Source of the DNA: Rhizaria sp. SCN 62-66
Taxonomy: Eukaryota
Assembly: GCA_001724265.1 (NCBI GenBank)
Contig: MEDY01000150.1
Span: 1-64,000, forward strand
Direction of reading: 5' to 3'
DNA: 64,000 bases
Shown here: positions 13,044 to 55,019 of the stretch, piece by piece
How positions within the stretch are numbered: the stretch's first letter is position 1
Layout of the letters: each line of letters opens with the position of its first letter
Program-made: the position numbers and the translations under genes
The notes under the pieces: generated by a model
What the model saw: only the letters and a program-made list of their open reading frames with translations
Databases searched by the model: none
Told to the model about the DNA's origin: nothing

Positions 13044-15629
13044 ATGTCTACCCAAAAGTAGATGGCGAACCGCATGAAGGCGAAGGGCCTTCAGAAGCTG
13101 CGTTGGTTCTGCCAGATGTGTCAGAAGCAGTGCCGCGACAAGAACGGCTTCGACTCGCACAACAGCAGTGAAAGTCACGTGCGTCAAATGGCGCTCTTCC
13201 GCGAGGATGCCGCCGGCATGGCTGAGACGTTCTCGCGCCAGTTCGAGGCCGCCTTCATGGACGTCTTGCGGCGCCGCGGCCGCGTGAGCGTCGAGGCCAA
13301 CTTGCTCTACCAGGACATGATCAGCGACCGCGAGCACGTGCACATGACCGCCACCAAGTGGGACTCGCTGACCACGTTCGTGCAATACCTCGGCCAGACG
13401 GGCCGCGCGGAGACGACCTATGTGCCTGAAAAGGGCTGGTTCGTGCGCTACGTCGAGACGGACGCGGCCGCGGTGCAGCGCCGCAAAGCTGGCGAGCTTG
13501 CGCAGTCGTCGGTGCGCAGCGCGGAGGAGCTCGCGCAGATGCAGCTCGAGGCGCAGCTCGCGCGCGCTCGCGCCGCCGCGGCCCTTGACGGCGGCTCTGC
13601 TGCTACTGCTGCTGCGGCGGCGGTGGACGCGGAGAGCGGGCCCGTGTCGACGCAGCTGGGCTCGCGTGAAGGCGCTGCCAAGATCTCACTGTCGCTTAAC
13701 CGCACTTCCAATAGCGCTCTTAATGCCAACTCTGCAAGCACTGCGAACGCGGTGGTGTCTGCGCCCCCAGGGGTCAATCTGCCTCCTGGCATTAGTGCTC
13801 CGCGGGGAGTTAGCGCGCCGCCCGGAGTGTCTGCGCCGCCCGGCATTATTGCGCCGCCCGGTGTATCTGCGCCTCCTGGTGTAACTGCACCTCCTGGAGT
13901 GGCCACTCCTCCTGGCGCCGCTGTGACCGCGCCGCCCGGTGTCACCGCGCCGCCCGGTGTCACCGCGCCGCCCGGAGTCACTGTCCCGCCAGGTATCAGT
14001 GCATCGTCCGGTGTGGCTGCGCCGCCTGGAGTCGCTGCGCCGCCTGGGGTGGCTGTGGCCGTGCGTCCGATGCCTCCCGGCGTGTCTGCACCTGCCGGCG
14101 CCAGCGCGACTGCGGTTGTGCCTGCCGGTCCTGTGCGGCCGCCCTCCGCCGCTGCCGCTGCCACTGCTGGTGGTGGTGTTGCTGCTGCGCAGCGCCCCGC
14201 GTTTGCGTCACCAGCCGTCGTGACTGCAGCATCGGCGGCGCGCAACCGCTCGGTTGCCTCCGTCTTTGGCGGCGACGGCGACGACGACGATGACGACAGT
14301 CTGGCTGCTGCCGCGGCAGCTGCGGCGGCGAAGCGCAAGATGAGTGCCGTTGAACTCGTGATGCAGCGCGACCGTGAGCGCGAGGAGAAGGAAAAGGCCG
14401 AAAAAGCCGCCGCTGCCGCTGCTGCTGCTGCCGCTGCTGCTGTCGTGGAAAAGGCGCAGCATCAGCAACAACAAGAACAGCTTAAGAAAGAGCAGATGGA
14501 GAAGCAGCGTGTTGAGAATGAGCGGCTTGAGAAACAGCGTCTTGACAAGGAACGTAATGACCGTGAGCGGGCTGACCGTGAGCGCAGTGAAAAGGAACGC
14601 AATGACCGTGAGCGGCTTGAGAAGGAACGTGCTCACCGTGACCGTGAGCGCAGTGACCGTGAGCAGCAATGCCTCAGCACGAGTGATGATGTGACACAGG
14701 TTCGCTCTCGTCCCAAGCTTGCAAGTGCGAGCGCTGACAGCGCAGTGACATCGACAACGACTGCAGAATCCTCCGTACAGCTGCCTTTGCCCCCAGCATC
14801 CGTGCCTGCGACGGCCACTGGCGCTGCGCCCGCGACAGACGCTGCGCCCGCGACTGTGGCCGACACTGTGACTGCGAGCGGCATTGCGACTGCGAGCGAC
14901 GCTGCGACCGCGACTGTGCGCGCCGCCGACAAGGACGCCGCGCTGGCCGCCCTGCTCGCGGCCGGCTCGGACGCGTGGCCAGTGCCGGGGATTGTCGTCA
15001 AGATCCTATCGCGCTCGCTGGCGGGCGGTGCGCTGTACAAGACTAAGGCCGTCGTGCTTTCACTCGCTCTCATCAACAACACCAACAATGAACACACTCA
15101 GGATGGCAAGGCCGACGCAGTTGTTGCTTTGGTGGCCCCGCTGGCCCCGCGCCCACGCATCGATGACCCTTCCGCGCGCGCCGCTGCCGTTTCCGCCGCC
15201 GCGGCCGCCGCCGCCGCTTTGTGGCTGTCTCCGTCCGGCGAGGTTCTGGTCGCCGCCGTGGCGCTGGACCGGCTGGAAACCGTGATCCCCGCTCTTGGCG
15301 GCGCCGTGGCCGTGGTGGCGGGCAGGCACAGCGCGGGCCGCCGCGAGACAGCCTCTGCGCTCACTCCCACCGTGCTCCGTCTGCCCCCGCAAAGCGACCG
15401 TGAGCGCGGGCAAAGCAACTGTGCGCCGCCGCGAGGCGGTGCGGAGATGCCGCCGTGCGTTGTGCGCGCAGTGCTGACGTCAGCAGATCTTGACCGGGGT
15501 GTGGCGACCGTGCGCATCGACAACAACACCGGTAGCAACAGCGGTGGCAACGCGGCTGAATCTGTGACGGTGACGGTGGGGTTCGATGACGTGTGCAAGA
15601 TCGCCACTGCGAGTGACCGGGAGCAGTAA
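13044..15629 (+). CDS. KIN17: KIN17 DNA/RNA-binding zinc-finger protein, with an in-frame TAG at codon 6
   Basis: ANRMKAKGLQKLRWFCQMCQKQCRDKNGF..H..SESH zinc finger, HVHMTATKWDSLTTFVQYLG winged helix, C-terminal W..PGIVVKI..YKTKAVV..LETVIP KOW-like region. Upstream ATG 13044 gives MSTQK*MANRMK, matching the family TPKxIANRxK. Ends TAA. Confidence 0.93.
13761..14097 (+). repeat. Degenerate 18-bp coding tandem repeat, (S/T/A)APPG(V/I), more than a dozen copies inside KIN17
   Basis: Repeated gcgccgcccggtgtcacc-like units that translate as APPGVS/APPGVT/APPGVA. Confidence 0.85.
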
Positions 15630-15873
15630 GCTCACCGCTACGCAAATCATGAATCATAATGCTATAATTTAAGCATTTAACGTTACTTATCTGAACAAAA
15701 CAACTCTTATTTAAAATCGCATTCAGTCGAACTGCGAATCTTGTCATACAAAAAAAGACACTTTATTGAAAGGAACATCGCTGGCCCTGAGACAATCAGG
15801 GCTTTGTAGAAGTTTAGTCGTAAGTAACAATGATGGAATTGGAAGCATGCAGTCAACGTGAGGTGAGAGTTAT

Positions 15874-16603
15874 TCAGCGTGCAGCAGCCACCGGCGGCAA
15901 CGTCACAGCCCCAGACCCCGCGCTCCCGGCGCTCGAGCCCATAGCAGAACTGCCACCGTTGGCACTGGCGCCGACATTGGAGCCGCGGCGGCCAACAGCG
16001 CCTTGCTGCTGTTGCTGCTGCTGCTGCTGTGCGTTGTTGCCGTTGCTACCTCTCGCGCTGGCGTGGGTATTGGCATGCGCGTTGTCGTAGCGCGTGGCAA
16101 GGAACGTCGACATGAAGCCTCCGCCGCGGCCGGGGCCCGGTGCCGCGTCTGCTGCAGCCACCGCCGCACCACCGTCGACCGCGGCCGTGTCGTCGCTCGC
16201 GCTGACAATCACCTCACCAGCGCTGTTGTGGATGTTCTGCGTGGTGTTGACGTACGCGCGGTCCGCCTCCCAGAGCGAGCCGGAGAACTCGCCCGCGCGC
16301 CCCGGACGCCCGCGCACTGACACGGGTGCGCCGGCCGCACCCTCCGCCGGGTGATTGAGCTCGGAGTAAGCGCCTGAAGCAAACTTATCGCTGAAACCGC
16401 GCTCCCAAGCGCCGGCGCGCGGGCCCTGGGACTGCGACTGCAATTGTGAGGGGCCGGACTTTGCGCTGGAGCCGGAAACGGAGCTAGAAGAGGTGCTACC
16501 GCGGCGAGCAGTGCCAACAGTCGGCGTGCTGTTGCTGTTGCTGTTGCTGCCAGCAGGCAGAGGCTGCGTCTGTCCCTTCTCGTCAGCGTCATACTGCTGC
16601 TGC

Positions 16604-16639
<36 letters not shown>

Positions 16640-18588
16640 CCGCTGGAGCCGCCGGCCGCGGCGGGCGCAGTGGCCCGCAGCCGCGCCTGTAGCTGCGCGT
16701 TGGCCTTGGTTTTGAGGTCGCGCTCGATCTGCGCCAGCGCCTCGGCAGACAGCGACTCGATGCGGTCGATAGACTCGGTCGGCAGCGCGCCGATCGCTTC
16801 GCACGCGGCGACACGGCCCGCAGCGCCCTGCAACCGGCGCGCGCGCGTCTCGTGCACCTGCCGCAGCCTCGCGATGGTGCGCCCCGCCGCCGCCAGCGCA
16901 GCCGCTTCCTCCCGCGCGCGCGCCTCGTCCGCGGCGACCTTGGCCTTGATCTGCGCCTCCCGGTGCTCGGCAGCCCGGCGCGCGCGCTCCACGGCCTCGG
17001 CCCTCAGCGCGCGCACGAACGCCTCCTCGCCGGCGCGGACAGCGGCCTCCTCAGCGCGCTCGGCGGCGGCGGCGGCGCGCCGGTCCTCGGCCTCTTGGCG
17101 GCGCCGCTCGCCCTCTTGCAGGCGCTCGGCCTCGATCCGCGCCGCCTCGCTCTGCACGGCGGCGCGGTGCTCGGCCTTGGCGCGCTCGCGCTCGCGCAGC
17201 TCCTCCGCGGCGGCGGCGCGGGCGGCGGCCGCGGCGGCAACACGCGCGGCGGCCTCGGCCTCACGCTCCTCGAGCTGCTTGGTGCGGGCGGCAAGGTTCT
17301 GCGCTTCCTCGCGGGCGATTGCCTTGAGCGCCTCGGTCTGCGCCGTGCCGCGCTCGCGCCGCGCGGTGACGCCGCCGGAGCGCGCGCCCTCGGCCTCGCG
17401 CCGCTTGGCCGCCGCCAGCGCCTCGCGCTCCTCGACGACAATGTGCCGCACAGCGACGGCCTGCTCGCGTGCCTTGGTTAGCGCCTCGTGGCGCTCCCGC
17501 GCAAGCCGCTCGCGCGCGGCGAGCATCGACCCAAAGCGCTCGACGTCCTGGCGCTGCTTCTCCTCGCGCCGCGCAAGCGCGTCGGCCTCGGCAGCATTAC
17601 GCGCGCGCCACGTCGCCTCTCGGTCCCATTGCGCGCGCGCCGCGTGGAGCCGAATCTCGTCGACCTTGCGCGCCATCGCAGCGCGGGAGAAGGCAGTCTG
17701 CTCCTCGCGCGCGATCGCGCCGCGGCGCAGCCGGTGCTCAGCCAGCACGGCTTCTTCAGCAGCAGAACCACGCACGCGGCGCGGGGAGCCGGACTCGCCT
17801 TGCTGCGACTGCTGCTGGGGGTTTGCTGCGTTGGCGGCGTTGGCGGGGTGCGCGGCGTCGCGGATGACGACCTGCCGCAGCATGGGGTCGCGCGTCTTTG
17901 CCACGAGCGCGCGGCGGTGCTCGACGCGGAGCGCGGCCTCATCCTCGCGCAGCTTCGCGGCGAGCTGCTCGGCGGCGGCGCGCTCGCGAGCGGCGTCAGC
18001 CGCAATGCGCAGGCGTGTGGCGACCTCGGCCTTGAGGGCCAGCTCCTCCTCGCGCAGTGCGGCGCGCTCGGCGGCAACGAGCGCAGCCGCGGACACGCGC
18101 GGGGGCGAGCCGCCGCCGCCGCCGCCGCCGCCGGAGATCTTGGAGGGGAGGCGGGCGGAGCGGCCGCCGCGGGCGCTGACCGGTCCAGAGTCGCCGCTGT
18201 TGTTACTGCTTGCGGGCGGGCGGGAGAGCTCTTCAGCGAGCTTGCGCTGCAAGCGGCTGTGCGTGGCCTGGACGTTGGCGAGGGTGGAACGGCGGAAGAG
18301 CTCGTACTGGCGCTGCGCGGCCTCGGCGGCGGCGGGCGGGCGGCCTGCGAGCGTTGGTAAGGCTGTGAAGTATGAGAGAGGACGGCGCAGGAGATCGTTG
18401 GGGTTCACGCCTAGCTCTGCGCATGCCTCGGCGGAGAGCGGAGTAAGCGCGCGCGGAGGGATGTCGGGCAGCAGGTCGTTGAAGACGGACGGGTTGATCG
18501 AGATGCCGTCCGTGCGCAGGGGATCTGAGCCGCCGCGAGAACCAGAGCCCGCACCGGAGCCAGCACCGGAAGACATGGATGAGCTCAT
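15874..18588 (-). CDS. Ala/Glu/Arg-rich coiled-coil protein of unknown function
   Basis: Long ORF with GC-rich codon bias from ATG 18588 (MSSSMSS) to TGA 15874. Short N-terminal motif PLSAEACAELGVNPNDL followed by long charged helical segments. Confidence 0.7.
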
Positions 18589-19853
18589 GCGACAAGCACG
18601 GTCACCAGGTGTAAGGAACAGCCACGCAGACAGATGTGAGCAACGCCTTAATACGTCTCGGTGATGTGTGAGGCTCAGAATGCGCTCGATTAAAGTGGAA
18701 GTGGGCTGTTTCTCAACTGTGAGGCGACAAGGTAGGAAAATGATATGTAAGCGGCATACAAACAAGATTATAAGTGTAAAATAAAGCATTCTAATAAATT
18801 CAGCAACCGCTCCTCTTATAATACACCACATTCCTCTGTTTATGATCATGTGCGGTTGATAAGGCTATTGAAAACTGAGCTTCCTGGAGAGAAACTGCTG
18901 CTCCGCGGTCTGCTCGTGTCAATGTGTCAATCTTGGTACAAAATCAACATGATTGAACTATTAACTGATAGAAGTCAAGATATTATCTGAATATGCCATA
19001 TGCGATGACATAAGATGTTTTAAAATGCGCATTTATTGATCCCACAAATCATATTGTTGCGCCTGTGAGACTTCATAGTCAATATCTCTCCATGCATTCT
19101 TCCTATCTTCGATACATTGGGCGATATCGTGAGTAAAATGGATCGTTTAATAGTGCAACCAGCACAGCAGTAAGCTTGGACGACAAGCCATTCACGACAC
19201 AGCAAGTAATACTCGTAGTGAGCCAACTCAAGGATGCTCCCACGTCTTTTGTGTTCTGAGGAGTGATCGATTAACATGGCCGATGAGTATCTTCTCCACG
19301 CAGATCAGCTGATACAATGCACAGCACCATGGTGTCATGTCAGCATCAAATTCCAGTATCAATGGTACCATGCAGCAACGGGAATAGTCGCCCTGACATC
19401 ATTTAGCACATCGCACAGTTGCAAAAAAGTTGGATGTTCGAGTCTGCAGTGCAACTCGTTGGGCCTCAACAAGAAATCGTCTAGCTCACAAGCAAGATAA
19501 GCCGCCATCAGTAAACGACAAATATGTAATCGACAAGTATCACAAGTGGTGACAGATAACCCACCCGCGCTTCACAGAACCGAGCTTTACCCCGCGTTTG
19601 ATCTCTGTTTGGAGTGTGTCAGCCGAGACCGTTTGGCCGCACCACACAACCGCCTTCGAAAGTCTGCCGAACTTGAGTGATCAGTATGTATCACGATGTT
19701 CGTCGACAAGGTTGCAATTGATTTCATAGGGTTCTATAGCGCTTCTGCACACACCCTTCTTTTACTGTTCCAGTTTGAGGCAAAACTTACCTCACGATCT
19801 CTCATTTCTTCCTCCCCACGCATTCATGCCTTGCCCTGCGCCTCCAGGGTCAC

Positions 19854-20238
19854 ATGTCGGCTCCCAGCACCACTGGCTCCCCCGCTGCGTTCCTGCGCAT
19901 GATCATCGGGCGTCCCGTCATTATCAAGCTTAACTCTGGTGTTATCTACAAGGGCGTCCTTGCGTGCCTCGATGGTCCGTGTCTCTTCTTTCCCCTCCTT
20001 GCCTCCATCAACACCGTCGTCGCAACAATCACCTCCAACTCACATCATCCTCTTTGTTTCCCTTTTCTCCGCAACCCCCTGATCACCCCCCACAGGCAAC
20101 ATGAATGTTGCGCTTGAGCAGACTGAGGAGTACGTTGACGGTCAGCTGACTGCGCAGTACAACGACGCATTCATTCGTGGCAACAACGTCCTCTACATTA
20201 CGCTTCAGAAGAAGAAGAAGGCTGCCGCCGCCGCGTAA
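19854..20238 (+). CDS. LSM6: U6 snRNA-associated Sm-like protein LSm6 (exons 19854-19974, 20096-20238)
   Basis: PAAFLRMIIGRPVIIKLNSGVIYKGVLACLDG|NMNVALEQTEEYVDGQLTAQYNDAFIRGNNVLYI; intron GTCCGT..CACAG; ends TAA. Confidence 0.93.
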
Positions 20239-20781
20239 AGAAACACGTACTCTCAACGGACGTGTTCACAATGGCTGTGCAAAGAGAAGACTGACGCTGA
20301 TGAGTCGCCGCGCTCAGACACATCGACGAGAGCATTCCAAGTGCGACGTAGGTGACATTGAAGATGTTGTGTTCCTGGCAAACGTTGATGCGACCAGGCT
20401 TCGTTATATGAAGCTGGCGAGTCACTGTTGCTATGTTAGGCATAACGATCTGACTCCCACAGCCTCTGTCTTTGGCAGTGTCTGAAATCCTCACCAGTCT
20501 AGAGATGGCGTGTTGCCAATGAGTCTTTGCGAAACGCACACACATGTACAAAGCTGTATTATTAAGAATACTTACACTAAATACGTTAGATATTACTACT
20601 CATATGATAATATTAGTCCGTAAACTACTTTACAAACAAAACAAATCTCAAAAACACAGAATCAAAAAAATCTTCACACAAATACACAAAACAACATTAA
20701 ACATCATCGCTCGAGGCGGGCATGTGAGGCTGAACAGCTTTTTGAACTTGGAACTCAAGATGCTCTAAACTGGCACTGAGT

Positions 20782-23216: not shown

Positions 23217-23248
<32 letters not shown>

Positions 23249-23551
23249 TTGTTGATACGCCTGCTGCTGTTGCTGCTGCAGCGGCTGGTGGTGCTGCTGG
23301 TGCGGCGAGCTCGCGGGGTAGTACGACGAATCAGTCGCGTCGTCATCGTACCCGTACCGCGCCGCCGCGGCAGCGGAAGAGCCGGACACTGCACCGCTGC
23401 CACCGTCATGTGCGTGGTGCTCTGCGTGCGCGGAGCGCGAGTCGTGCGCGTCGTGGGCGACGGGAGAATGGGCAGGGTGGGGGCCGAGGGAGGCGGCGGG
23501 GACGTAGCCGCCGGCCTGTGCAGCGGCCGCCAAATAAGCCTCGTGGTCCAT
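20782..23551 (-). CDS. CBS-domain protein, AMPK/SNF1 gamma subunit-like (exons 23551-22724, 22572-21907, 21726-20782)
   Basis: FDFIPQSGKVIVFDTDLQ|VRHAFQALVANAVNCGPVWD..FVGMLSITD, YRVHRLAVV, RRVSALPII, HQVIVV..GVVSLTDVL match four CBS repeats. Phase-0 GTACG..AG introns; ends TGA. Confidence 0.85.
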
Positions 23552-25457: not shown

Positions 25458-25488
<31 letters not shown>

Positions 25489-29197: not shown

Positions 29198-30681
29198 ATG
29201 TCTGAGGACGCCGCCGTGCAGGTACGTTAGTCCTCCTTTTACTCGTGCCCGTTTCTCCCTCAGTTCTGCGCCATCAGCACTTGTAAAGCCCTCTTCTGCC
29301 CGGTTTGGACCCCACCTCAACACTTTCTGAGCTCATACTTGTTGTTTTGTATACGTTTCACTCTTTTGCGTCCGATGCTCCACTCTCTTTTAGGTCGCTG
29401 TCCGCGTACGTCCGTTCAACGGACGTGAGAAGACGCATGGCGCCAAGCGTTGCATCGACATGGCCAACAAGACGACGACCATTTACGAGACGGACGTCGA
29501 CGAGGAGGGTGGGTACAAGGATTTCGCCTTCGACTATTCCCTCTGGTCGCACTACGACATGGCGAACGAGCCCGCCGGCCACAACCCCGACTACCCGGAC
29601 CGCCCCAACGTCGACCAGCAGTACCTCTACGACATGATCGGCGTTGCGCTCCTGCGCGACTTCTGGGATGGCTACGACGTGTGCATGTTCGCTTACGGCC
29701 AGTCCGGCTCCGGCAAGTCGTTCTCCATGACCGGCACGGGCCCCCGTTGCCCCGCCAAGTGGCAGGGCATGATTCCCCGCGTGTGCCGCGGTGTGTTCGA
29801 GCTGGCCGAGGAGACCACCGCCAAGGACCCCAACACGTCGTTCAATATCATGGCGTCGATGCTTGAGATCTACCTTGGTAAGATCTACGACCTTCTTATC
29901 CCCGGTGAGAACTACAACGTCAAGACGCGTGAAGAGCTGCAGATGCAGATGGACGACGTCGCCGGCCTCAACTGGCTCCCCGTGTCTGACACGGACGGCG
30001 TCGGTGACCTCCTCGTGCTCGGCTTCTCCAACCAGTACAAGGCCCCCACGGGTCTTAACGTCGACTCGTCGCGTGGCCACACCATTTACACGCTCCGTGT
30101 CATGCGCACCGTCAAGAACCCCAAGGCGAAGAAGAAGAAGGACCGTGAGCAGACGATCACGACGGCCATGCGTCTCGTTGACCTCGCCGGCTCCGAGCGT
30201 ACCGAAAAGGTGCTCGAAATCACCAAGGCCCAACTCGCCGGTCTGCTGCAGGAGAAGTACAAGAAGGCCTGCACCGTCACGGACGAAGCCATGGCGATCT
30301 ACAAGGAAGAGCGCACCGCCGAGGGTCGTTCCATTAACCAGGCGCTGACCAACCTCGGCCAGTGCGTGAAGCAGGTCGCCAAGTACTCCGAAATCAACGA
30401 TGAGGCCGAGCGTAACCGCAAGATGAACCAGATTGGTTGGCGTACCTCTGCCCTCACGCGTCTCCTCAAGACTGCGCTCAACGGCCGTTGCAAGACCATC
30501 ATGATTGCCGCCATCTCGCCCTCGCTGACCGAGCGCGACGAGACCATGTCGACGATGCGTTACGCCAACAACATCAAGATGATCAAGTCGTGCGCGCAGA
30601 AGAAGGTCGCCGTGGAGACCGAGGAGCAGAAGATGATGAAGATCATCAAGGACCTCGAGGACAAGCTCGCGGCGGCCATGG

Positions 30682-30712
<31 letters not shown>

Positions 30713-38011: not shown

Positions 38012-38052
<41 letters not shown>

Positions 38053-40953: not shown

Positions 40954-40987
<34 letters not shown>

Positions 40988-41675: not shown

Positions 41676-42061
41676 TCAAACTTTGCGCTGACGGACGTAG
41701 ACAGACAAATTCGTCGTGCCTGAACAGCACCATGAAGCGCTTCGAGCCGCAGCAGGCTCGCCCGACCGTGAGATCACCAGTCAGAGGAGGGGGAGCCGAC
41801 CGAATCGCTTTTAGCGAGTCAAACTCAACATAAATTCGCGAAATAGTTTTAAATTGTTCGTTTTCCTAAATTAAGGGTATTTATCTAAAAGGAAACGAAA
41901 CTAATCAACTTAAAGTCCAGCGAAGTTCTGTCTACTCCGCCTCTTGTGTTAAGCGCAACTTGAAACAGATTCGCGACTGCTCTGTGCATCGACAGCGCAT
42001 CCAAACAACTACCTAAAGCCACAGCAGCAACCCGTATGAAAGAACAGGCATTGCTTGATCT

Positions 42062-45000
42062 ATGAGCCATGCATTCCACGCCATCTCTTCCTTCTCAGAC
42101 GACGAGGACGATGATGTTGTCATGGTCCACTCTCCGTCCCAGACTTCTGCCTCGGCCAACAGCACTGGTACCGGGCCCGCTGCGCCGCACGGCCCGCGCC
42201 CAAAGCAATATGTTGATCTCACCGCGCTGCACTCGCCCACACAGCAGCGCGCCCGGCTGACTGGTCCGTTTCTCTCGCCGACAGCTTCCTCGCGGGAACC
42301 GGCGCCACCTCTTCAACAAGAGCTACAGCAATCAGCCTTCGCTTCAGCGCCCGCGCGCGCGCTGCAGCAGGCGTATGCAAACGATAACAGCGAGAACACT
42401 TACCAACAGCCGTTGCGGGCGCCAATTCACGGCCAAACCGGGCTGTTACGTCCTGCAGTAGCTGCGCCAACGCCAGGGCCAAACTTCAAACGCTTCCGTC
42501 CCCAAGCCCACGTCCAGGGAGGACCTGGGGGACGGCCGCTGCTGACGCCGCAGCAGCCGCAACCGCAACAGCAGCAGCCACAGCAACAGTTACAGCAACA
42601 GCCAATGCAACGGTTACAACAACAGCAGCAATAGCAGCCACAGCCACGGCCACAGCAGGTTAGGCAACCGGCGACAAAGACGGAGCCGGGACAGCGCACT
42701 ATTGCCGCATCAACTGCAACCGGGGCTGAGCTTGTGCTCCCTGTGACACCTGCGCTATCATCATCGTCTTCGTCGTCGCTGTCTTCGTTGCTGCAGCCAC
42801 AGTTGCAGTCGCCGCCAGTCGCGTCGCTGGTAGTGCCACCGCCGTCTCAATCAGAGCCTGCAGCAGCAGCCCTCAGCGGGGACGTGTTGCCGCTCAGCCT
42901 AAGCAGGGCGGGAAGCACCAAGCGCGAGCTTGGTCTTCACACGATACAAACATAGCAGACATACGGTCAACTAACGCAGCAGCAGCAGGAAAGCGGCCAG
43001 CAAAGGTTGCCCCAGAAACCGCCTGGATCGCTGGTGAAACGAGAGCCTGGCATTCAGCTACAGGCGCAGCCACCGGCGCAGCGCAGCGCAGCTGCACAAG
43101 TTCTGGGGCCGGGGCCCGGCCTCCGTGGGCGCGGTCGTGGCGTGCTGCTGGTCCGCGGCCGCGGCGGGGCGGGACTTGTGCGCGGCGGCATTGCTCTTAG
43201 GGGCGGGCGCGGCGGCGGGGCCGTGGTCAAGCGGGAGATAATACGCCACCAACAGCAGCAACAACAACAACCAAAGGCCGAATTGCTTCAGGTAGCACAC
43301 GCACAAGATCAGCAACAAGTGCAACAGGAGCTGGCTAGCAGCAACGTGGCTTTCAGTCAAGAACAAGCTCAATATCTGTCAAGCGTGAAACACAGCGCGA
43401 GTCAAACGCAAGCGCAAGACTCACAACAGCAACAGTCGCAAACAGGTGCGCTCGAACAAGATGTGGAACACAGATCGCCCCATACGCAACAGTCAAATGA
43501 ACAGGGTGATGTGCTCTTCCCGCGCATTGAGCCAGTTGCGGACCCGTTGCTTCTGGCGCCTGTTGTCGAAACTGGCAGCGAGGCGCGCGCAGTGGCGATG
43601 GCGGCAGCGGCGGCGGCAGCAGCCGCCACAGCAACGGCTGAGCAGCATGCGCTGCCTGCTCAGCAACACGCCGCATTATCCTCCGCAGATGATCGTGTGA
43701 TTAACACTGCAACTGCGTCGCAGGAGCAGCAACAACAAGAGAACGAGCAAATGCAAGATCAAGAGAGCGTGGAACTTGAAGAAGATGTTTATGATGATGA
43801 CGCGGATGTTGTGATTGAGGTACGTCGTGCAATTGAGAATACTTAATACTCAAAGTCTACATCCCAAAGCTCACCACATAATATAGTACTATATGGTCTT
43901 TTTTTCTGGTCACTCGTAGTTGTATCAACGCTTTTACTCTGCAGTCCGGCGCTTGCAGCCGCGGCCGCTCAAGGGCGCGCGCAGCGCCGCAGCCGCGCCG
44001 GTGCGGTGGCACCAGCCTCTGTGGGATAATTCACCGGTGCCGGTTGTTGCCGCAGAGCTGGCGCGCACGTTTGCGCCCCACGAGGCACATGCGGTACGTT
44101 GAACACTCTATGAGATGTGTTTGATGACAAAAACAGCGTTATCTACTCGATTTCAGTTTACCCCATGATAATCTCAACGGATATTTTTTTGATTTCACAT
44201 TTTCAAACGCCGCGTTTGAAACAGCTGCTGCTGCTACACGCTGACGCGGTTGCAGCATTGCGCACACGTGTCGTCATCGCGGCACAACAGCTAGGCGAGG
44301 GCCGCGCAGACACAGCCTCAGCAGTCACAGCCAGTGACCCTGCCGCGGTTGCTTTGTGGCAGCGCGTGTCGCACGCTCTCGCGACCCCAACGGTTACTGC
44401 GTCGGAGGGGCTAGCGCCCGCAGCACTCGCCACGACGTTAGCCAGCACGTGGCCATCGCCAACGCTGACAGTCGGCGCCGCGGCGGACGGCAGTAGCCAT
44501 GGGGCGGTGATGCATGCGCTTTCGCTAATCGTCAGCGCAGGCGCCGCGCTCGAGCTCCGCGGGCGCCCGCTCTCTTGCGCCACTGGGAGCGCTATTGGCT
44601 CCACAGCAGCAGCAGGTGCATCGCTTGTGCCGATGCCGTTGGTGTTGCGGTCGCGCGCAAGCGGCGCGTTCTTCACACTGTCACTTACTGGCAGCGCAAG
44701 CGGCGGTCTGCAGCAGCAGCAGGGAGGAATTTGGGGTGGCGCAGCGGGTTGGCAAGCGTGCGTGCGAGCCTTAGCTGTTGCTGCAGCGTTGGCAGCAGCG
44801 CCGGCAGTAACTGTGCGTGCCCTGTCTGCGCTCACAACGCAGACACCACCAACAATGTCGATGGCACCAGCGTCAAGGTATAATGACGCTGCAAAGACCG
44901 CCAAGTAGCCAGTGATACGCGCAGAGCAACTACTCGCATTGCCTGCGCCTCGTTCGCAACCAGAAAAGGCCTCTGCAACAACAAGCAGCACAAAAGCAGC

Positions 45001-48000
45001 CCAAGGAATAGCGCTAACATCCGTGTCAACACCCACGCAGGCACCTGCACAGGCACATACGCAGCAGCAAGTTTCCCCCGACAAGGCAGCCGCATTGGGA
45101 CAGCTGATGGCACTGTTGCAGGCCGCGACAGCGCAGGCCGCGGCCTTGGGCATCGAACTGCCTGGTGGCGTCGTGCCCGTTATATCAGCTGGTGAAAGCG
45201 CGGTGACTGCACTCCAGGGAGGCGAGTCGTCATCAACAACACTCGGCGTGCCTGTAACGCCGTCTGCGTCAGCGCCGCAACGCGCGCCGCTGCCGCAAGG
45301 GCAGATCCAGCTTCGACAATCGCATCCACAAAAACGGGGGCACGCTACTGTACCTGAGCTGATGCCGCCGACGCCGCAATCACGGGTCGCCACAACCTTG
45401 CTGACCGCTGCATCGATACGGAGCGTTGTGACTGCAACAGACGCCGCACAGGCGGGCGCGACATGTGTGCTGTCCCCTGGCATGGAGGTGATTGTTGCGC
45501 CAACGCTGCTGCTGGCATCGCTTGCGCGCGCGCTCACTGCTGAGGACACCACAACCGCGCGCATTTCTGCGATAAAGCGCGAAATCAACGCATTCGCAGA
45601 AAAGGCAGCTCCCGACACCAGCGACAATGCAGTGGCTGCGCTCGTTGCACAAGCCGGCGCCGTCGAGCGCGAGGGCGCGCGCGCGGTTGCACTGGCGGGC
45701 GCACTGCGGCGGGTCGCGGCTGCGCAGACGCTGGCGCACCACGCAGGCCAGCGCGCGCGCGACGCCGGTGCGGCCGCGGTCGCCGGCGCGGCTGCGGCGG
45801 TGGCGGCGCTTGGAGCGGGCGAGCTGGATGCGTACGCGGTGTGGGCGCATGCAAGCGCAAGCGCGAGTATGCGCAATGTAAGCAATAATATAAGCGCTGC
45901 TAAGCGCGACGTATATGGTATGGCTGTTCATGATGCAAACAACAGTGAGCAGCAACAACAGCAAGAGCATGGCCCGGGCCCGTTGGCGCGCGCGCTAGGC
46001 GCGGCGACGTCGTTGGCGCCTGACGGCATCGCTGCGTTGCAGTCACTCGCACAGGCGGCGCACACCACGGGAGCGTCGGCTGTTGGTGGGGCTGTGTCTG
46101 CAGCCACTGTGGCCGCGACAGTCGTCGCAGTGCACTGCGGCGGCGGGCTCAGCGGGGGCCACACACACTGGGATGTGTTGGTGCTGCGCGTACGAACGCC
46201 TGCGTCCGAGTCTGCTGCTCTGACCTCGGCAGCAGCGAGTGCGGGCACAAAGCGCGGACACAGTGCTGCGCGCGGAGGTCGCGGTCACAGTAGCGGGGGA
46301 GGCGCTGCGCAACCAAAGTGGACGCTCATCGCAGTCCCACTGCCGCACCCGCTGCTGCACGAACAGTCAAAGCTGCAATCATCAGATGTCACAATGGCAA
46401 CGCGCGCAGTGCGCGCGGCAAGCATTGGTGTTTGTTGTTTTCGACAGACCGCAAAGATACCGACAGCATCATTCCAGGCAGGAGTTGCAACAGAGAGTGA
46501 CATGTTGCATGCGCTAAGTCAGCTCAAGCCCGGGGCGGTTGTGACGGTCACATCAGCGTTGCCGCATCGAATCGGCGAGTTGCCGCCACAAAGGCGCGCA
46601 ATCGTGACCACGCCCCCACAGCCTCCAGCACCAGTTGCCGACGGCTTAGATGCTGCAGCGGCGCTGGCGCGCTGGGCGGTAGACGCTACGGCTCAAGTCG
46701 TGCTGTTGGGGGACGGTAGTGGCGCTGCCATTGACTGGGTACGTTACTAAACACACATATCTCGACGATCGCAATGATATGAATATCTGCACAATGCATC
46801 TGGTCTAAATTCAAATGCATTCTTGTTTGCTCAACTCCTTGTGTTCTTAGTCAGAGCCACCAGTAACAGTGCAGCTTATGCAGGTTACAGTAGGCGCACT
46901 AGAACAACTCAAGCCCACTGATGTAACGCAGTTGAAAACGGTGCAGCCACACGCCGGCTTATATAAAACTAATCGATTTGGTTTAGATGCAGGCAACAAC
47001 GCGCTGTCAGGCTCTGCAAGTGCATTGCGGCGGCAGCTCTTGCTGCAGTCTGGGACAGCGTTCGCAGCTCTTTCGACTCCGCGCGCGGCGTCGTTGCTAT
47101 CTTTGCTACTGCTCCGTCACATACAACCTGCACATGCATCGGGTGCAAGCGCTTTGCATGCTTCAGATGCTACTGCCACACAGTCTTGCTCGACAGCAGA
47201 ACCAGCATGTATCGCCAAACAATGCTGCGACAAGTTCGCGGCACTTGCAACCTTCCTGGGTTCAGTGCCCGCGGCTGCGTCGGTCAGCAACGCGGCACGT
47301 GAGGCTGCAGCTGCGTGCAATGCATACGCCCGCTGGGCTAGCACTGCGCCTGCGGGTGTCGCAGCCGCAGTGCCGCAAAGCGCGATACCGAGTGCAGCAG
47401 CGGCGGCAACTGCGGCGCTCGCGCGCCTGCGAGCAGCGCTCTCTGCCGTCTCGCACCCCACTGACACTCTGACCAATATTCATGATAGCAGCGCTGCCGG
47501 CGCGCTGTTGGAGCTTGAGCCTGCGTTGTGGGCCGCCGTCTGCGCGCGCGCCAACGCCGCCGAGGCGCTCGCCGACTGCGCGCGCGAGGCGGACGCCGCG
47601 GTCGCCGGCGCCGTGGCGGAGGCCGCCGGCGCGCAGACCGGGACCGGGACCGCGGGCGCCGTGTGGGGCCGTGTCGCGGCGGCGCTGCCGCGGCCGGTGC
47701 TCGACACTGCGGAGGCGCTGGCGGCCGCCGCGCTGGGCGAGGTGGACGAGGAAGCTGTGGCTGTGGCGACGGAGGCAGTGGAAGCAGCGCAGCAACGGCG
47801 CTAGCGACTGCGGAGGCAAAGCAGCTCTGTGTCGACAGACGGTGATGGTGCACAAGTGCCACATAGGGAGCACAGCAACCTGTTTGAGCTCAGTAAAAGA
47901 TTCGCTAGTTCATCATGTGTGTTGGTTGATGCGGGAAGTGATCGTGAGCAAGAGTACTCCGCGCAGACAAACGCATCAAACTCTGTCCGACACTCTGTCA

Positions 48001-48311
48001 CGTGCCTTGCGTTACGAGAAGCTGTAGACGCCGCGGCAGCACTTACTGCGCTTAGTAGCGGCTTTGAAAATGCTACCAAGCTTGCCAGCACAGCATCATG
48101 TGCGGGCGTTTGTTGCTGGTACACGTGCGGCCGCGACAGTGGCAGGTGTGATGGTGTGTGGCGCAGTGACATACACTGCGCGAGCGCTGAGAGGGGTTAT
48201 ATGACTAGAAATAACAAAATCCCTGTCTGTATTGTGTATGCACTATGTGGCGCAATCGAATCAGCGATGGCCGCGGTCAGTGCAATGTTGTGCGGTGGTG
48301 GGCATGATTGA
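42062..48311 (+). CDS. Large unknown protein (~1950 aa; Gln-rich and RGG-containing N-terminus) with four in-frame TAG codons (exons 42062-43819, 43920-44093, 44225-46738, 46851-48311)
   Basis: ORF-track pieces 42062/42734/43007, 44117/44912 and 46869/47829 share a frame within each exon and are separated only by TAG (42632, 42953, 44906, 47802). Three phase-0 GTACGT..AG introns join the exons; ends TGA. No family recognised. Confidence 0.72.
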
Positions 48312-48783
48312 TATTGTACAGATATTGACTACTCTCAGTACGGAGTTGGAAGCGCGAAGAAGAAAGATACTTGATATATCAACACATGTGTTGCAACAGA
48401 GAGTGAAGATAATTAGAACACATTTGAATCTAATTATATAGCGAAATCATCACATATATCTAACTCATTCAAGATATGTCGTTCATACAGTACGTATTTA
48501 GATGTTCCCTCTGAGCACCCTCCATGTCGTTGGGCGCGAAGGTGTTGCGGATGGCGTCAATGCGGACTAACTTTAACCAAACTGTTCTCGTTCAATTCAT
48601 TGTCTAGTCGTTGATAATGTTCGCAGTACATTTTTTCAGTGGGGTTCTTTTTAATTTTACTATAATTTGTTATACACTCAAAACCTGATTGCTCACCACT
48701 TCTTTCCGTGAACCGGATGTGACATGATTTCTGTCGGTCTACGTCGCTCCCGCAATTTCGCTCTCTCCTTCAGCCCGAGGTCA

Positions 48784-50553
48784 ATGGCAATTGATTGGGA
48801 CGATACATTTGCTTATAGCACGTTCAAGGTACGCCGTTTTCGCGACTTTTGTCAAATACATTGCCGCAACGCTTGGTAGCTGACTCCAAAGTGTGCAGTC
48901 TCGCTTCTGGCTCTCATCGTCTTTCTTTTTTTTTTTCTTCTTTTTTTGTACTTGAATCTCACCTCACATTCGTGTTCATACATCTTAATGGTGATGTCTG
49001 TGTATACCACCCGCTCTAGGTTGTACGCGTGCGCGACCGCTATCTCGGTATCCTGCGACTGGTGCTTGTCCTGCTCATCGCCGCCTATGTCCTGGTCAAG
49101 GTCCTCCTCATCGACAAGGCCTACAACGCCACCGAGATCCCCATCGGCACTGTCCGCTCCTCGCTCATGATGCCCGAGGCCACGATCGACCGCGCCGCGC
49201 TGTCCTATTGTCACGGCAACACCGCGGGCGGCGAGCCCTGGCCGTTCCCGGCGGAGGACTACAATTGCGCGATCTGGGACGACCAGTACGTCCGTTTCCC
49301 CGCCGAGGAGGTCAACGGCCTCTTCATCACCTCGCGCGTTCAGGAGGTCTCGCAGACGTACAATTGCGGCGACGGTGACATCACCGCGGCGTGCCCCAAG
49401 CCTTTCTCGAACGCCGGCGACCCGACGACAAGCTTCATCGCCGGCGTCGAGCAGTACACTCTGGGCCTGCAGCACTCGTTCCGCTCCCCTCTCTTCTCGC
49501 TCGACTCCGAGTCAACGGTCTACAAGGGCTCCTCCAACGCCTACAGCGGCGTCATGCTCGACTTCAATGGCAAGGAGGTGATGAAGTTCCCTGTGGACGT
49601 CACCTCCGACAAGCCTGACGTGTTCACGCTTGGTGACCTGCTCAATGCCGCCGGCGCTTCGCTGTCTGATCCTTCGAACGGTACGCTGCATTTGCGATAT
49701 TTATTTGAGATATACGACGATGAGTCAGTCCGAATAGTGAGGTGCCTGTAGTTTTCAGTGTACATGCGAGAATATTTTCTTTAATTGCATCGTATTTGTC
49801 TCGATTGACTCTTTATCTTGGCTCATTGGTACATTTGTGTGACGTTCACTGCAGACCCTAAAAACTCGCTGCGCTACTCCGGCATGGTGCTCCTGGTGAC
49901 GGTGGACTACACCAACGACGGCCACCCGTCGTCGACGCGCTACACCTACCGCGTTGCCGCCATCCCCAACGCCGACTACAAGATGTTCGAGGTCCAGTCC
50001 GGCGTCAACAACGGCCTGCCCCGCCGCAACGCTGAGTACGTCTCCAGAGCAATTGGAGTATGACGACAACAATGACGGATGTTGTTGAATAGTTAAAGTG
50101 TGCAATCACATGATTTTACAACTGCAATCTAGTACAACTGGACTATACTTATCATCCTTGCTTTATCTTACTTCGATGTCTTATGTTTTGATTCGACTTG
50201 TTTTTAGCCGTCGCTCTACCAAGCGCGCCGGCCCCAAGATTATCTTCGTCGTCTCCGGCAAGATGGTCCGCTTCGACTTCCAGACCTTGCTGATCCAGCT
50301 CGTCTCGGCTTTGGGCCTGCTGTCAATGGCCACCATCGTGGTCGAGATGCTCATGCTCTACGTCATGCCGCTGCGCAAGCGCTACAGTGACGCCAAGTTT
50401 GAGTCCACCGTCGACTTCTCAGACGTCCGCGACGGAAACGAGCAGCTGCTCGCCGTCAACTAGATGGACCAGGCGGTCAGTCTCGACAACGCCGCTGTCA
50501 ACAACAACGGCAATGCTTCCAGCGGGCTCTACCAGCCGCCGAGTGACGTCTAA
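48784..50553 (+). CDS. P2X receptor-like ATP-gated ion channel, Dictyostelium/algal type (exons 48784-48828, 49020-49680, 49855-50035, 50208-50553)
   Basis: IDWDDTFAYSTFK|VVRVRDRYLG + TM1 + KAY; LRYSG; GPKIIFVVSGKMVRFDFQTLLIQLVSALGLLSMATIVVE (TM2); YSDAKFE (YxxxK). In-frame TAG at 50461 is followed by 29 coding-like codons to TAA 50553; under the standard code the gene would end at 50463. Confidence 0.88.
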
Positions 50554-50870
50554 GTAGCCCGTTCGCCACGTGTAAGTGTCTGTGTACGCAAGGACTTGAC
50601 GTTGGATTCTTGTTGTTGTGTATATTATATCTCTAACTGTTACCTCGGATTTTATTCCTATTTTGCTTTTGAATTGACAACTATCACAACTGTCCGTCCA
50701 CCTTACCTATAAATATAATAAAACCTCCGCTTTACTCGCATGCAAGAATCACACGAATACGTTGTTTGTATTAATCGTAGCTAGTGGAAATCATGTTCAT
50801 AAATAACATTAAAGTAAGCAGTGCAATGCGATTGATCAGTGAAATACCGAGCATTGCAGTTTGTTCGCAT

Positions 50871-53800
50871 TTAAATAACAGTTGTTTCGTCGACGCCGTT
50901 CGCAGCCTTGACAGTCTCGCGCCAAGCCCACTTCGCGAGCTCCGTGGCGACAAGTGGCGAGACCACCGGGGCGGCAGCCGCTCGCAACATATCGCCCCAC
51001 GCCTCGCCCGTCGCGCCGCTGCACGCGGAACTCAAGCCTGCTGCCGTGATGAACGCGGTGGTCGCAGGCGGCAGCGCAGTCAACAGTGAGCCCGCAGTGT
51101 CTGCACCGACACTGCTGTTTTCACTGCTTGAGTTGTCCGTTTCAGCAGCCGCGAGAGCTTCGGCGGCGTCAGCGACTGTGCGTAGGACGTCAGTGATCAC
51201 GTGTGCGCGGTGCTGTTGTAGCAGCAGGCGCGCGCGCAGCGGGCCCGCGGGCAGTTGCCGCAGCACCTCATCCAGTGGCGTGCCCGCGCGCACGCGCAGC
51301 GGCGCTGCGCGAGACTTCGTCGAAGCAGACGCGGCACCCGGGGCGGTGTTTGTTGCGACAGCCGCGGAGTCTGCGGCGGCCCAGCGCGCCTCGAGGAGCG
51401 GCAGCACGGCCAGTGCAGGCAGCCCGCGCGGGTGCGCCAGTCCAAGAGACTGTAACGCTGACGCTGCAGCGGAGGCGCTGCTCTCGCCCTTCGACGCGCC
51501 GGCGGCCTTGGGTGTGCTCTTGCCAGCGCTGGCGCCCAACTTGTCATCGCTAGTGGCGCTATCAGCGGGGGCAAGCTGCGCCAGTGCGCGCCTGTCGCCG
51601 TTGCTGAGGAACACGGCGTCGACCGCGTCCTCCTTGGCCGACGTGACGCGCGTCGCCAGCAGCGCGACCGCCGCCCAGCCCGCGCGCGCCGCCCTCCCGC
51701 CGCGGCCGTCCGCGCGCGGCACCGCGGACGCGAACAGCGGCTGCAGGGCGCGCGCCGCGCCGATCAGCGGGCCCAGCGCAGAGCCCAGGCGGAGGTCCAG
51801 CGCGGGCAGATCCTCGCACAGCCGCTGCAGCCGCCGCTCGAGGTTCAGCACGCGGGACCGCGCATCTTGCGCGGCAGACTGCGCCGGCGCCGGCTGCGAG
51901 CGCTGGAGCTGGCGCCGCTGCAGCTTCGTCAGAGGCACGGCGGGGGCTGAAGCCTTTTTGGTGCCCGCTTTCGTTTGGTGATGTGACGGCGCCTGTGCAG
52001 CGGGGTTACCTTTGTTCAGTTTGCTGTGAATTGAGCGTTCCTTAGCGGCGCGCGCGGCTTCCTGAATGGCATCGTGCTCAGCCTTAGCCAGAGCCTTCCG
52101 CGCCGCTACTAGCGCGCGCTCAACGGTCGCAACATCATCGTGCTCGACGTCGCCGTCATCGTCCGCATCGCAGTCGGCGGTATCAAAGCCGACATCGCTG
52201 CCATGTTTGTGAGCTCCATCATTCGCGCAGTCATTTGCGGTGTGTGTGGCGGCAGTTTGAGTGAACTCAGCCAGTACGCTGTCAAAGCTCAGCGACATCG
52301 CGGCCACGGCCCGGGCGCTGGCGTGCGCCCAAGCCGCCTCGTCTTGGTCACTGAACGCCAACACGCCGGGCAGCCGGCCCTGCGTCGCGTCGGTCTGAGC
52401 CGCCGCTGTAGCAGAGGAGGCGAGGAGTGGGGGCAAAAGATAAAGCCGCTCCAGGAAATAAGCGTAGCTGCGCAGCACAGACGCACGTGTCAAAGGGGAA
52501 ATACCTGCAACGGAGTTGGTTACAACTTGAACATCACGAGCACTCACAACTGATGCTGTAATAGATGGCACAGGCACTGCAAAACTCGCTAGAGCGTGCG
52601 CCGCGTCGGCCTCAGCCACCGCGCCAACCTTCAGTGCAGGAACCCCGCCGTTGGTGCTGACAGCGTTGCATTCGGCCCCGGCGCGGGCAGCGTCGGCGGC
52701 GGCGGCAAGCGCAGCCACCGCGGCGTCGAAGTACGCCGGAAACATCGGATCCCCCTGCGCGGCGCGGCCGACCATGACGGCGCCGAGGTGCTCCGCGCCC
52801 AGCAGCGAGGCCGAGGGCGCCGCGCCGCCCGAGCACGCCGCCGCGGGCTGCGGCGGGGGGGAGAAGCCGGCCGCGGCGTCGACGGCGGCAGACAGCGCGG
52901 CCGGGTCGAGCGCGCTCAGCGTTGTCGTCACCGTCGCTGCCTCTGCAGTGCTGCATGCGCTTGACGCCGCGTGCGTGACTGTGCGGTGGATGTTGTGGTA
53001 CTGGAGCGGCGGCCGCGACATGAGATGCCGCAGCGGTGCCGGGATCTGTCGCTCTGACAATCCACCTGTAGTCGACTCGGATGCGTCTGTCTGCTCAATG
53101 TCACCGGGTGAACTATCGTCGTCGGGTACAGTCTCTGCTGCTGGCGCTGCCTTGACGTGAGGTGTTGGCCCCACAGAGGGAACGGCCCACAGCCTGTGCA
53201 GTGCTGACTCGACGGCAGACACACCACCGTTATAGTCCAACCGCACATCGTGGGGCCGAAGCGCAACGTTCACGTCCATACTCACCGTCGCATCGGCATT
53301 GGCGGTCAATGTTTCCGCTGCGGTGACGGCAGCGCGGAGCCACGACGGCGCGCCGGGCGCGCGCAGCTCCGGCGCCAGCACGCGCGACGCCCTGTACAGC
53401 TCAACAGCGAGCGCGGCGTCGGCCAGCGTCTCTGGCGCCGCACGCGAGCGCACAAGCGCCGCCGGCGTCGGAACCGCCGCGCACTGCTCGTCCTCGTCCT
53501 CATCCGCCGCGGGCCGCGTGGTCGCCGCGCGCGCGCCGGCGGCGTCGGCGGCGCGCGCGGCGGCGTGGGCGGCGCGGCCGTCAGCGCTGCGCTGCGCGTG
53601 CGTGCGCGTGTCGGCCGCAGCGGCCGCGGCAGCAGCGGCAGCGGCGGTGGCGGCGGCGGCGTCGGCAGCGGCGATGACGGCCTCGAACGGGCCCGGTGGA
53701 GGCGGAACCGTCCCCGCTGCAAGCGCAGACAGTGCAATCGACGCAATTCGCGCGTCCGCAGCTGCGTCATCAGCGTTCGTGATTACATAAGTGTTATTGT

Positions 53801-55019
53801 TATCCAGCTGAGGTTGAGGCAACCAACCCCGCGCGACGGCTTCCTTGGCTAACAAAGGCAAGCGCTGCGTCGTCAAAACGTGCAGAAACCCCCTCAAATC
53901 GGCCCTCGCGCGCGCGACGAACAGCGGGCGCAGCGGCGGCACCGAGAGGTTGTCCTTGGGCGAGTGCCGCAGCAAGGCCGTGCGTGCGTGGGCGACGACG
54001 TGCGCGATCCCCGCCCGCTCGCAGAGCCCGCAGAGAAAGGCCAGGAAGGACGGGTAGTGGCTCGGCGCGTCGACGCCGAGGCGGAATTTGGCTGATAGTG
54101 GGACGACAAAGTGATCGTGATCAGTGTTCGTAGCGTTTGTCTGTCCCTGCGCGTGCGACTGTAACTGTGACCGCGACGGCGGCACCAAGTGACTGTGCGC
54201 CGGAGCCGTAAGCGCGCGCTCCAGCGCGGCCCGCAGCAGCGCAACCTGGTCGGGGAAGCCGGGCGCGCGCATTAGCGCGGCGCCGTGCTCGCCGGCCTGC
54301 GCGGACGAGGCCGGACAGCCCATGTTGAGGTTGACCTGGTGTGCGCCCGCCGCGAGCAGCGCCAGCGCCGAGGGGAAGAGGAGGCGCGCGGAGGAGCCGG
54401 AGAGCTGGGCCACAGTAGCGCCGCGGGAGCGCAGGGACCCGGACACGCTGCCTAAGACGGGGCGCGTCTCAGAAGAGCAAGAGTTGGGCGATGAGAGCTC
54501 AGTGGAGGCAGAGCTGGAAGAGCTGTAGCCAGAGTCGTTGGCAGCGCGTGCACTGGGAGGCGCGGACAAGGGCCGGGAGAAGGCGCCAGTTGGTGAGGGC
54601 AATGCGGAGGCTCCAGGGTATGTAACAAAGCGCTGAGAGTGCTATTGTGCGTCAACACTGCGACCGCTGCTGCTGGTTGAGCCGTTGCTGCCAGCGTTGC
54701 AGAGAGTGTCACCATCGAGTGCTTCAGGGAAGATAGCGCAGAACGCGCTGCGGGCGACGTTCGGAGACCGGAGGACCTGCATGTCAATAAGCATGGGCGT
54801 GTAAAGGTCCGTACGCAGCGAGGCAAGTCGCAGAAGCTGGCGGAAGTGCAAGTCGGTGACGTCGACCATCGGCGCCACGGCCAGTCGCGGCGGGGCGCGC
54901 ACTGGGAGGGGCCGCACGGACCGCGTGGCGCGCTGTGGAAGGGCCGCAGAGGCCAGGCGCGCGGGGCACCGGCCCAAAAGTGGTGCGGTGACGCGGAAGC
55001 GCGCGCGCAAGCTCAGCAT
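50871..55019 (-). CDS. tRNA-dihydrouridine synthase, DusA-type, probably organelle-targeted, with an in-frame TAG at 54644-54642
   Basis: VAPMVDVTDLHFRQL..LYTPM lies before the TAG. QLSGS, NLNMGCP, GAALM, KFRLG, HARTA..SPKDNLSVPPL, YNGG and VMVGRAA lie after it in the same frame. Arg-rich N-terminus MLSLRARFRV; ends TAA. Confidence 0.88.

Follow-up and report, generated by a model that had tools for sequence, protein, structure and literature searches.

The nuclear genome of the uncultured protist Rhizaria sp. SCN 62-66 quite probably reads the codon UAG as an amino acid, with UAA and UGA still acting as stops. We examined a 64,000-nucleotide stretch of its DNA (positions 1 to 64,000 of contig MEDY01000150.1, assembly GCA_001724265.1; hereafter the window) in which an original prediction had named seven in-frame TAG codons in four genes. 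All seven were found at the places given, namely 13059, 42632, 42953, 44906, 47802 and 50461 on the plus strand and 54644-54642 on the minus strand, and they are spread over KIN17, a P2X receptor gene, a dihydrouridine synthase (Dus) gene and a gene of 1,955 codons. Each lies in frame inside an open reading frame (ORF) otherwise free of TAA and TGA. The frames also run on past the TAGs as had been claimed, with no TAA, TGA or frameshift lesion in any of the four genes. The sites sit between 5 and about 1,800 codons into their genes and affect roughly 4 of 18 genes. We take TAG to be translated because of the N-terminal register of KIN17, the continuity of Dus with a homologue and the codon bias of the P2X tail. 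Further support comes from the lack of TAG terminators in the window, as opposed to the apparent TAG terminators of relatives. On this evidence the predicted code, with UAG as sense and UAA and UGA as stops, is supported, and the organism would represent a new lineage of a known code type.

The TAG of KIN17 (13059..13061, plus strand) is codon 6 of a coding sequence that spans 13044-15629, ends in TAA and matches the Pfam WH_KIN17 and KIN17 zinc finger families (5e-29 and 4e-16, respectively). Its N-terminal 219 residues, with TAG entered as a residue, were searched with HMMER against 1.84 billion representative proteins. Most alignments among the best 150 matches start at query residues 3-5, which is 5′ of the TAG at residue 6. 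The homologues were anchored at the GLQKLRW motif in 149 of the 150 cases, the remaining one being a fragment. Counted from this anchor, K occupies position -10 in 146 of 149 homologues, and T or S occupies position -12 in 136 of 149. In the window gene, the codons 5′ of the TAG place K at -10 and T at -12, with an ATG in the same frame at -14. By our estimate, the probability that a 5′ leader would show this register by accident is well under 1%.

An ATG immediately follows the KIN17 TAG, so that re-initiation at this codon is possible under the standard code. Such an explanation would make the seven TAGs true stops or recent nonsense mutations, lying in chance ORFs, pseudogenes, re-initiated genes or mis-modelled genes, and we regard it as quite unlikely. 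For KIN17, it leaves the codons 5′ of TAG matching the conserved K and T/S in register. Indeed, 148 of the 149 anchored homologues reach further upstream than the Met that follows the TAG, and one starts as late as that residue. An intron in the 5′ untranslated region ending at the TAG/ATG was also considered, and it is unlikely given the same K and T/S match.

The Dus gene (55019-50871, minus strand; Pfam match 1.7e-20) ends in TAA and carries its TAG at 54642..54644, between the APMVDVTD and NLNMGCP motifs. The N-terminal motif and the remainder of the domain fall on either side of this codon, in one frame. A homologue from a relative (P0126, 1,074 amino acids) shares 44% identity over 360 aligned columns and is unbroken from motif to motif, with a shorter linker. 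A codon model trained on other genes gives log-likelihood ratios, in the same frame, of +15.7 upstream and +9.6 downstream of the TAG. Under the standard code, the catalytic domain would be split here, whereas that of the relative is intact. The database prediction made with the standard code (P0125) begins 3′ of the TAG and lacks the N-terminal motif. A copy of GTACG, the donor motif of introns in the window, lies 170 nucleotides upstream of the TAG and was ruled out as a donor, given that it falls inside codons conserved with P0126. The encoded protein is long (~1,380 residues), with large insertions parting the TIM-barrel motifs and an extension of some 600 residues at its C terminus; the same layout is seen in P0126. 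A search of metagenome contigs for the one that encodes P0126 gave no match.

The P2X receptor gene was identified by Pfam and comprises four exons on the plus strand (48784-48828, 49020-49680, 49855-50035 and 50208-50553). The model has 411 codons, with TAG (50461..50463) at residue 381 of 410 and TAA at codon 411. The 29 codons that follow the TAG have a GC content at third codon positions (GC3) of 0.80 and a codon-model log-likelihood ratio of +10.2. Among 15,644 non-coding windows, 6 (0.04%) reach this score, and none of 1,850 windows read in a wrong frame does; AT-rich sequence begins directly after the TAA. The Pfam match ends before 50461, so the receptor would be domain-complete if it stopped there, which suits the standard code. 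Against a stop at this site stands the tail itself, whose coding score is so seldom reached by non-coding DNA.

Gene ends in the window point in the same direction. In the census, each stop was counted after an ORF with clear in-frame coding signal and was checked for a drop to AT-rich sequence. The 18 gene ends comprise 9 TAA, 9 TGA and no TAG, and the 16 ends that are independent of the hypothesis, a small sample, comprise 8 TAA, 8 TGA and no TAG. The original prediction had counted 11 TAA and 7 TGA among 18 models. Its absence of TAG ends stands, but two of its TAAs prove to be intronic and the split is even. Terminal TAA and TGA codons are always followed by a fall in GC content: the 90 nucleotides 3′ of the stop have a GC fraction of 0.27-0.51 for 17 terminal TAA or TGA codons, as compared with 0.54-0.64 for the seven TAGs. 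A TAG followed by such an AT-rich drop was found nowhere in the window, with 47802 as a possible exception in the role of terminator. The TAG entries of the stop scan were 47802, 50461, 54642, one antisense ORF and one ORF that runs into an intron.

Relatives give a different picture. On contigs of two relatives further removed (L003 and L002), three of six gene ends resemble a TAG followed by a GC drop (L003:2652-8051, L003:17718-20963 and L002:5057-6643). The kinesins on these contigs are 53% (L003) and 61% (L002) identical to that of the window, and in a tree the L003 kinesin falls in the sister group of the window's. The apparent TAG terminators therefore suggest that the standard meaning of TAG has been kept close to this lineage. 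A third contig (L001) carries a kinesin 88% identical to that of the window with no in-frame TAG, but it is uninformative on the code because it holds the kinesin gene alone. As a separate observation, a TAG lies immediately 5′ of the first codons of the motor domain in the window (29391-29393), in L001 (376-378) and in L003 (9998-10000); the encoded sequence begins VAVRVRPFN, or VGVRVRPFN in L003. Judged from sequence, this TAG looks like a conserved 3′ splice acceptor, and its retention in L001 suggests that this contig is genomic DNA rather than cDNA.

Across 14,276 codons in 16 coding segments, we counted 7 TAG, 0 TAA and 0 TGA codons. The two zeros arise partly by construction because the segments were delimited by TAA and TGA. 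None of the TAGs has a GTACG donor nearby, as the original prediction had also stated, and the closest same-strand upstream copies are 170 to 1,415 nucleotides away. The prediction had further remarked on a Gln-rich ORF of some 4,000 residues without TAG. This proved to be a 4,046-codon ORF (244-12384, minus strand) with zero stops of any kind and a GC3 of 0.77, and it was used to train the codon model.

The remaining four TAGs share a gene of unassigned function (42062-48311, plus strand). Its exons lie at 42062-43819, 43959-44093, 44225-46738 and 46851-48311, and its introns (43820-43958, 44094-44224 and 46739-46850) all have GTACGT donors and are all in phase 0. Three ORFs that the original prediction had treated separately (42059-43846, 44114-46750 and 46809-48311) thus prove to be parts of one gene, joined in phase 0. 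Lying directly 3′ of GTACGT donors, the TAAs at 43846 and 46750 are intronic rather than gene ends. The model spliced in silico has 1,955 codons plus TGA, its length is a multiple of three, and its internal stops are the four TAGs: 42632..42634 (residue 191, inside a poly-Gln run), 42953..42955 (residue 298), 44906..44908 (residue 859) and 47802..47804 (residue 1787), all on the plus strand. Beyond the first two TAGs, the exons stay in phase over a further ~1,650 codons, which is hard to reconcile with these codons being stops. In run X5, contig ends at 43817 and 46737 adjoin two of the predicted donors. No Pfam match was found for this gene, which has weak codon bias (GC3 about 0.6) and low-complexity regions rich in Q and A. 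We also considered a 31-nucleotide GT..AG intron around 44906 and rejected it; its length is not a multiple of three, it lacks GTACG and it is GC-rich, unlike the six introns read. The stretch after TAG 47802 is Cys-rich and hydrophobic towards the C terminus and might be a tail anchor.

The TAGs are also present in independently assembled sequence. Contigs of two runs from other studies carry them with no differing letters: those of X3 have the TAGs at 42632, 42953, 47802 and 54642, and those of X4 have the TAGs at 42632, 42953, 47802 and 50461. The contig over the Dus site spans 54154-55200 (X3) and the one over the P2X site spans 50408-51274 (X4). A contig covering 44835-45129 (X5) carries TAG 44906 unchanged; its library is labelled RNA-Seq cDNA, yet the run is flagged as probably DNA. 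No variants are listed at the TAGs in this comparison, which covers six sites, with 13059 outside it. Thus, six of the seven sites match contigs of other studies. Contigs from polyA RNA (X6) represent parts of the long four-exon gene, P2X exon 2 and two segments of Dus (54660-55026 and 54092-54434), and they end 16 nucleotides short of the Dus TAG.

These contigs bear on the idea that the TAGs are errors of sequencing or assembly, or that the mRNA is edited from U to C to give CAG. All seven sites can be reached from CAG, the likeliest source codon, by a single C-to-T change, which is what this idea calls for. Against it, six of the seven sites read identically, with no variant listed, in contigs from three further runs of other studies; TAG 47802 closes the exon D ORF in each of its four database versions (P0277-P0280; ENA, Logan and JGI), and the X5 contig, cDNA-labelled but probably DNA, keeps TAG 44906. 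We consider errors and editing very unlikely. The same invariant TAGs in other studies, together with polyA RNA on both sides of the Dus TAG and from parts of the long gene, also disfavour stops or recent nonsense mutations under the standard code.

Several results weigh against a translated TAG and are best considered together. All counts come from one 64-kb window and the sample is small; four of the seven sites share the one gene of unassigned function. Around three of these (42632, 42953 and 44906), the codon model gives no information or a negative score, and in-frame coding scores there are no better than those of other frames or of the non-coding model. After 47802, the codon model favours 'non-coding' by 30 units per 100 codons, on a scale where other parts of the same gene range from -19 to +5 and true intergenic DNA reaches +67. 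Exon D, which contains this site, has no homologues outside this organism, and its matches were the organism's own shortened predictions. None of the seven TAGs falls in a conserved Gln column, and none falls in a conserved column of any kind. The base that follows TAG is C at five sites, A at two and G at none. Among the polyA-RNA contigs listed, none bridges a TAG, with uncovered stretches counting neither way. A tRNA scan and an Rfam search gave no tRNA gene or Rfam match in the window. Finally, codon usage predicts that TAG should make up 63-65% of random nonsense mutations, and seven TAGs out of seven give p = 0.04-0.05.

Given this last expectation, stop type was dropped as strong evidence against pseudogenes, and the standard code gains accordingly; it gains as well from the many long spurious ORFs in all frames of the GC-rich window DNA and from the placement of four sites in a weakly biased gene without homologues. 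The absence of TAA, TGA and frameshift lesions from the four TAG-bearing genes nevertheless speaks against decay. Programmed read-through in an organism with the standard code was rejected separately, as roughly 4 of 18 genes are hit, the window has no TAG terminators and one site in seven fits CARYYA, a motif for stop-codon read-through.

The weakest of the seven cases is TAG 47802, which may be a real stop because the codon model prefers 'non-coding' after it. If so, TAG would have two meanings. Read-through at this site is still the likelier outcome in our view. The 168 codons that follow are free of stops in frame 0, and the two alternative frames contain 2 and 17. Periodicity by codon position is detected there at p = 0.005, with six non-coding controls giving 0.04-0.86, and the GC drop sits at the TGA (48309) that ends this frame.

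A dual meaning is central to a further explanation, in which the code is ambiguous or leaky: eRF1 would still terminate at UAG, and a suppressor or near-cognate tRNA-Gln would read sites of weak context. The genuine stop would then be 47802 and the other six TAGs would be read-through sites. Stop/sense codes of dual meaning are documented in ciliates, as far as the available text of two sources describes them (PMC4967479; 10.1101/2022.04.12.488043). Also consistent with such a code is the position of the sequence after 47802 as the most non-coding-like part of its gene. The base after TAG points the same way. Its preference for C and avoidance of G (43% of codons start with G) give post hoc P values of 0.015 and 0.019 for seven sites, and the TAG-ATG arrangement at two sites gives a post hoc P of 0.004, likewise for seven sites. 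A +4 base that is never G fits context-dependent reassignment better than a complete one. In contrast, no gene end in the window consists of a TAG with an AT-rich drop, and the Dus and KIN17 proteins would mostly be truncated unless read-through were nearly complete. The CARYYA motif fits one site of seven (42632, followed by CAG CCA), and the stop-free, periodic sequence after 47802 is unexpected beyond a genuine stop. On balance, we judge an ambiguous code to be unlikely.

Taking TAG as a sense codon, its rarity becomes informative about the stage of the change. The ratio of TAG to CAG across all segments is 0.014, with 0.044 in the long gene of weak bias and 0.008 in the remainder. For TTG and CTG, the analogous pair of first-base synonyms, the corresponding ratios are 0.26 (all), 0.58 (long gene) and 0.21 (remainder). 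Compared with a synonym in free use, TAG is thus 13-26 times rarer, a deficit that an ambiguous code would also explain, and it accounts for ~1% of putative Gln codons. The sites cluster in genes of weak bias and in variable linkers. This rarity suggests that the change is recent or that the codon is poorly decoded, in agreement with the original view of a young or poorly decoded sense codon.

We tentatively extend this reading to an early-stage reassignment of UAG in an uncultured wastewater cercozoan, which would be a second, independent code change in Rhizaria; we hold this at somewhat below even confidence. The same guarded view would have TAG already gone as a terminator and amounting to ~1% of Gln codons, mostly with C or A as the next base and within variable linkers and genes of weak expression, and relatives from the sister group of the kinesin tree continuing to use it as a stop. 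If true, the case would be a natural intermediate between the 'codon capture' and 'ambiguous intermediate' routes, and the change could be followed in time series of bioreactor metagenomes and across strains.

If TAG is a sense codon, glutamine is the favoured meaning, with moderate confidence, on the basis of local context and mutational parsimony. A likelihood built on neighbouring residues gives Q a posterior of 0.91, a crude value under a flat prior, and places Q 6 nats over L; it is driven by the Q-rich contexts. Furthermore, among the codons one step away from TAG, CAG is the largest source (37%). These two results lend weak support to the Gln assignment of the original prediction. Two TAG sites, in KIN17 and Dus, can be aligned, each at a variable position: the column in KIN17 has A in 82, D in 31, W in 11, Q in 6 and L in 0 of 149 homologues, and the Dus TAG aligns to an E in the variable linker of P0126. 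Most known reassignments of UAG are to Gln. The single known rhizarian reassignment of UAG is to Leu, in the available text of its description (PMC5304391).

By analogy with known cases (PMC5304391; PMC11687900), the tRNA that reads UAG would carry the anticodon CUA, and a mutated copy of tRNA-Gln(CUG) would be its simplest source. The second expected component would be an eRF1 that recognizes UAG less strongly, as in Iotanema spirale and ciliates; the window does not contain the eRF1 gene.

The window is nuclear DNA from a GC-rich, intron-bearing eukaryote. Exons have a GC content of ~55-75%, whereas introns and intergenic DNA have ~30-45%. The six introns read are 112-191 nucleotides long, have GTACG donors and a GC fraction of about 0.35-0.43. 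Besides KIN17, P2X and Dus, Pfam identified a dual-specificity phosphatase, a kinesin-3 with an FHA domain, a G-patch/FtsJ methyltransferase, an ACT-domain protein, an MFS transporter and ribosomal protein S7e. A proteasome alpha subunit was recognized by eye from its translation, as was a short ORF (61117-61413, minus strand, ending in TAA) that resembles the mitochondrial ATPase inhibitor IF1.

The kinesin served to place the organism. Its nearest named relative is that of the cercozoan Mataza sp. D1 (64% identity), and the next named match is Bigelowiella natans (39%). In a FastTree tree, the window kinesin falls within a clade of ten sequences (support 0.95) in which Mataza is the only named member. 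The organism is therefore probably a cercozoan, a placement that is tentative because it comes from a single-gene tree. The stretch is almost fully present in contigs of bioreactor and wastewater metagenomes and of a fourth run, from three studies in total; habitat was read from the four runs that hold at least 0.78 of the window's words, with the small-share runs X5-X13 set aside. Public gene calls made with the standard code are truncated or restarted at TAGs (P0125 and P0277-P0280), and eukaryotic bins from wastewater thus need code-aware annotation.

Among the closest matches in code is Iotanema spirale (Fornicata), in which UAG encodes Gln and UAA and UGA are stops (Panek et al. 2017, PMC5304391); this and the other published systems are compared here as the available parts of the cited sources describe them. 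As in I. spirale, the change in the window would concern UAG alone: all genes end in UAA or UGA, and UAG is never a clear terminator and would be a minority Gln codon. The share differs, with UAG making up about 8% of Gln codons in I. spirale and about 1% in the window. So does the basis of the assignment: 22 of 28 hyperconserved UAG positions are Gln in I. spirale, whereas the window assignment comes from context (PMC5304391). A T32G change is reported in the eRF1 of I. spirale (PMC5304391). The two lineages are unrelated. The original prediction had held the organism to be neither fornicate nor ciliate, and a cercozoan as closest named relative bears this out.

A second relevant system is exLh (Sainouroidea, Cercozoa), in which UAG encodes Leu, with 384 UAGs in 71 genes lying on conserved Leu positions and UAG depleted in highly expressed genes (PMC5304391). 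Like exLh, a filosan cercozoan, the organism of the window appears to have changed UAG alone and to end its genes solely with UAA and UGA, and a depletion of UAG in highly expressed genes likewise fits both. Unlike exLh, it has seven TAGs in 14,276 codons, Leu at 0 of 149 homologues in the alignable KIN17 column and a context that favours Gln. A code of the exLh type is accordingly not favoured, with Leu 6 nats below Gln and TAG so rare. The window kinesin groups with Mataza, and the named kinesin matches include no sainouroid.

Reassignment of UAG alone to Gln is also described for the ciliate Protocruzia tuzeti and two phyllopharyngean lineages (PMC11687900). These share with the window a code of the table 15 type, which has arisen repeatedly and independently. 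In contrast to Protocruzia and the phyllopharyngeans, the window has genes with GTACG introns and cercozoan closest relatives. UAG encodes Leu in some other ciliates and Ser in Scotinosphaera (PMC5304391; PMC11687900). Ambiguous codes, in which a codon is both stop and sense, are known from Condylostoma, karyorelicts and Blastocrithidia. The window resembles them in a possible dependence of TAG on context (+4 C or A) and in one possible terminator, 47802. In those organisms, as their available descriptions have it, reassigned codons are frequent in coding sequence and termination depends on position, near the 3′ end; in the window, TAG is rare and there is no clear terminator.

We found no published report of UAG as Gln in Rhizaria, Thecofilosea or activated-sludge protists, in a search that left subscription papers and supplements aside. 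Nuclear codes that split UAG from UAA are few in the available text of the sources, comprising those of Iotanema, exLh, Scotinosphaera and some ciliates (PMC5304391; PMC11687900). If our reading is correct, the window would add to these an extra independent and apparently recent event in a cercozoan-like protist. It would also capture the change while UAG is still very rare as a sense codon, and would thereby bear on the routes by which stop codons are reassigned.

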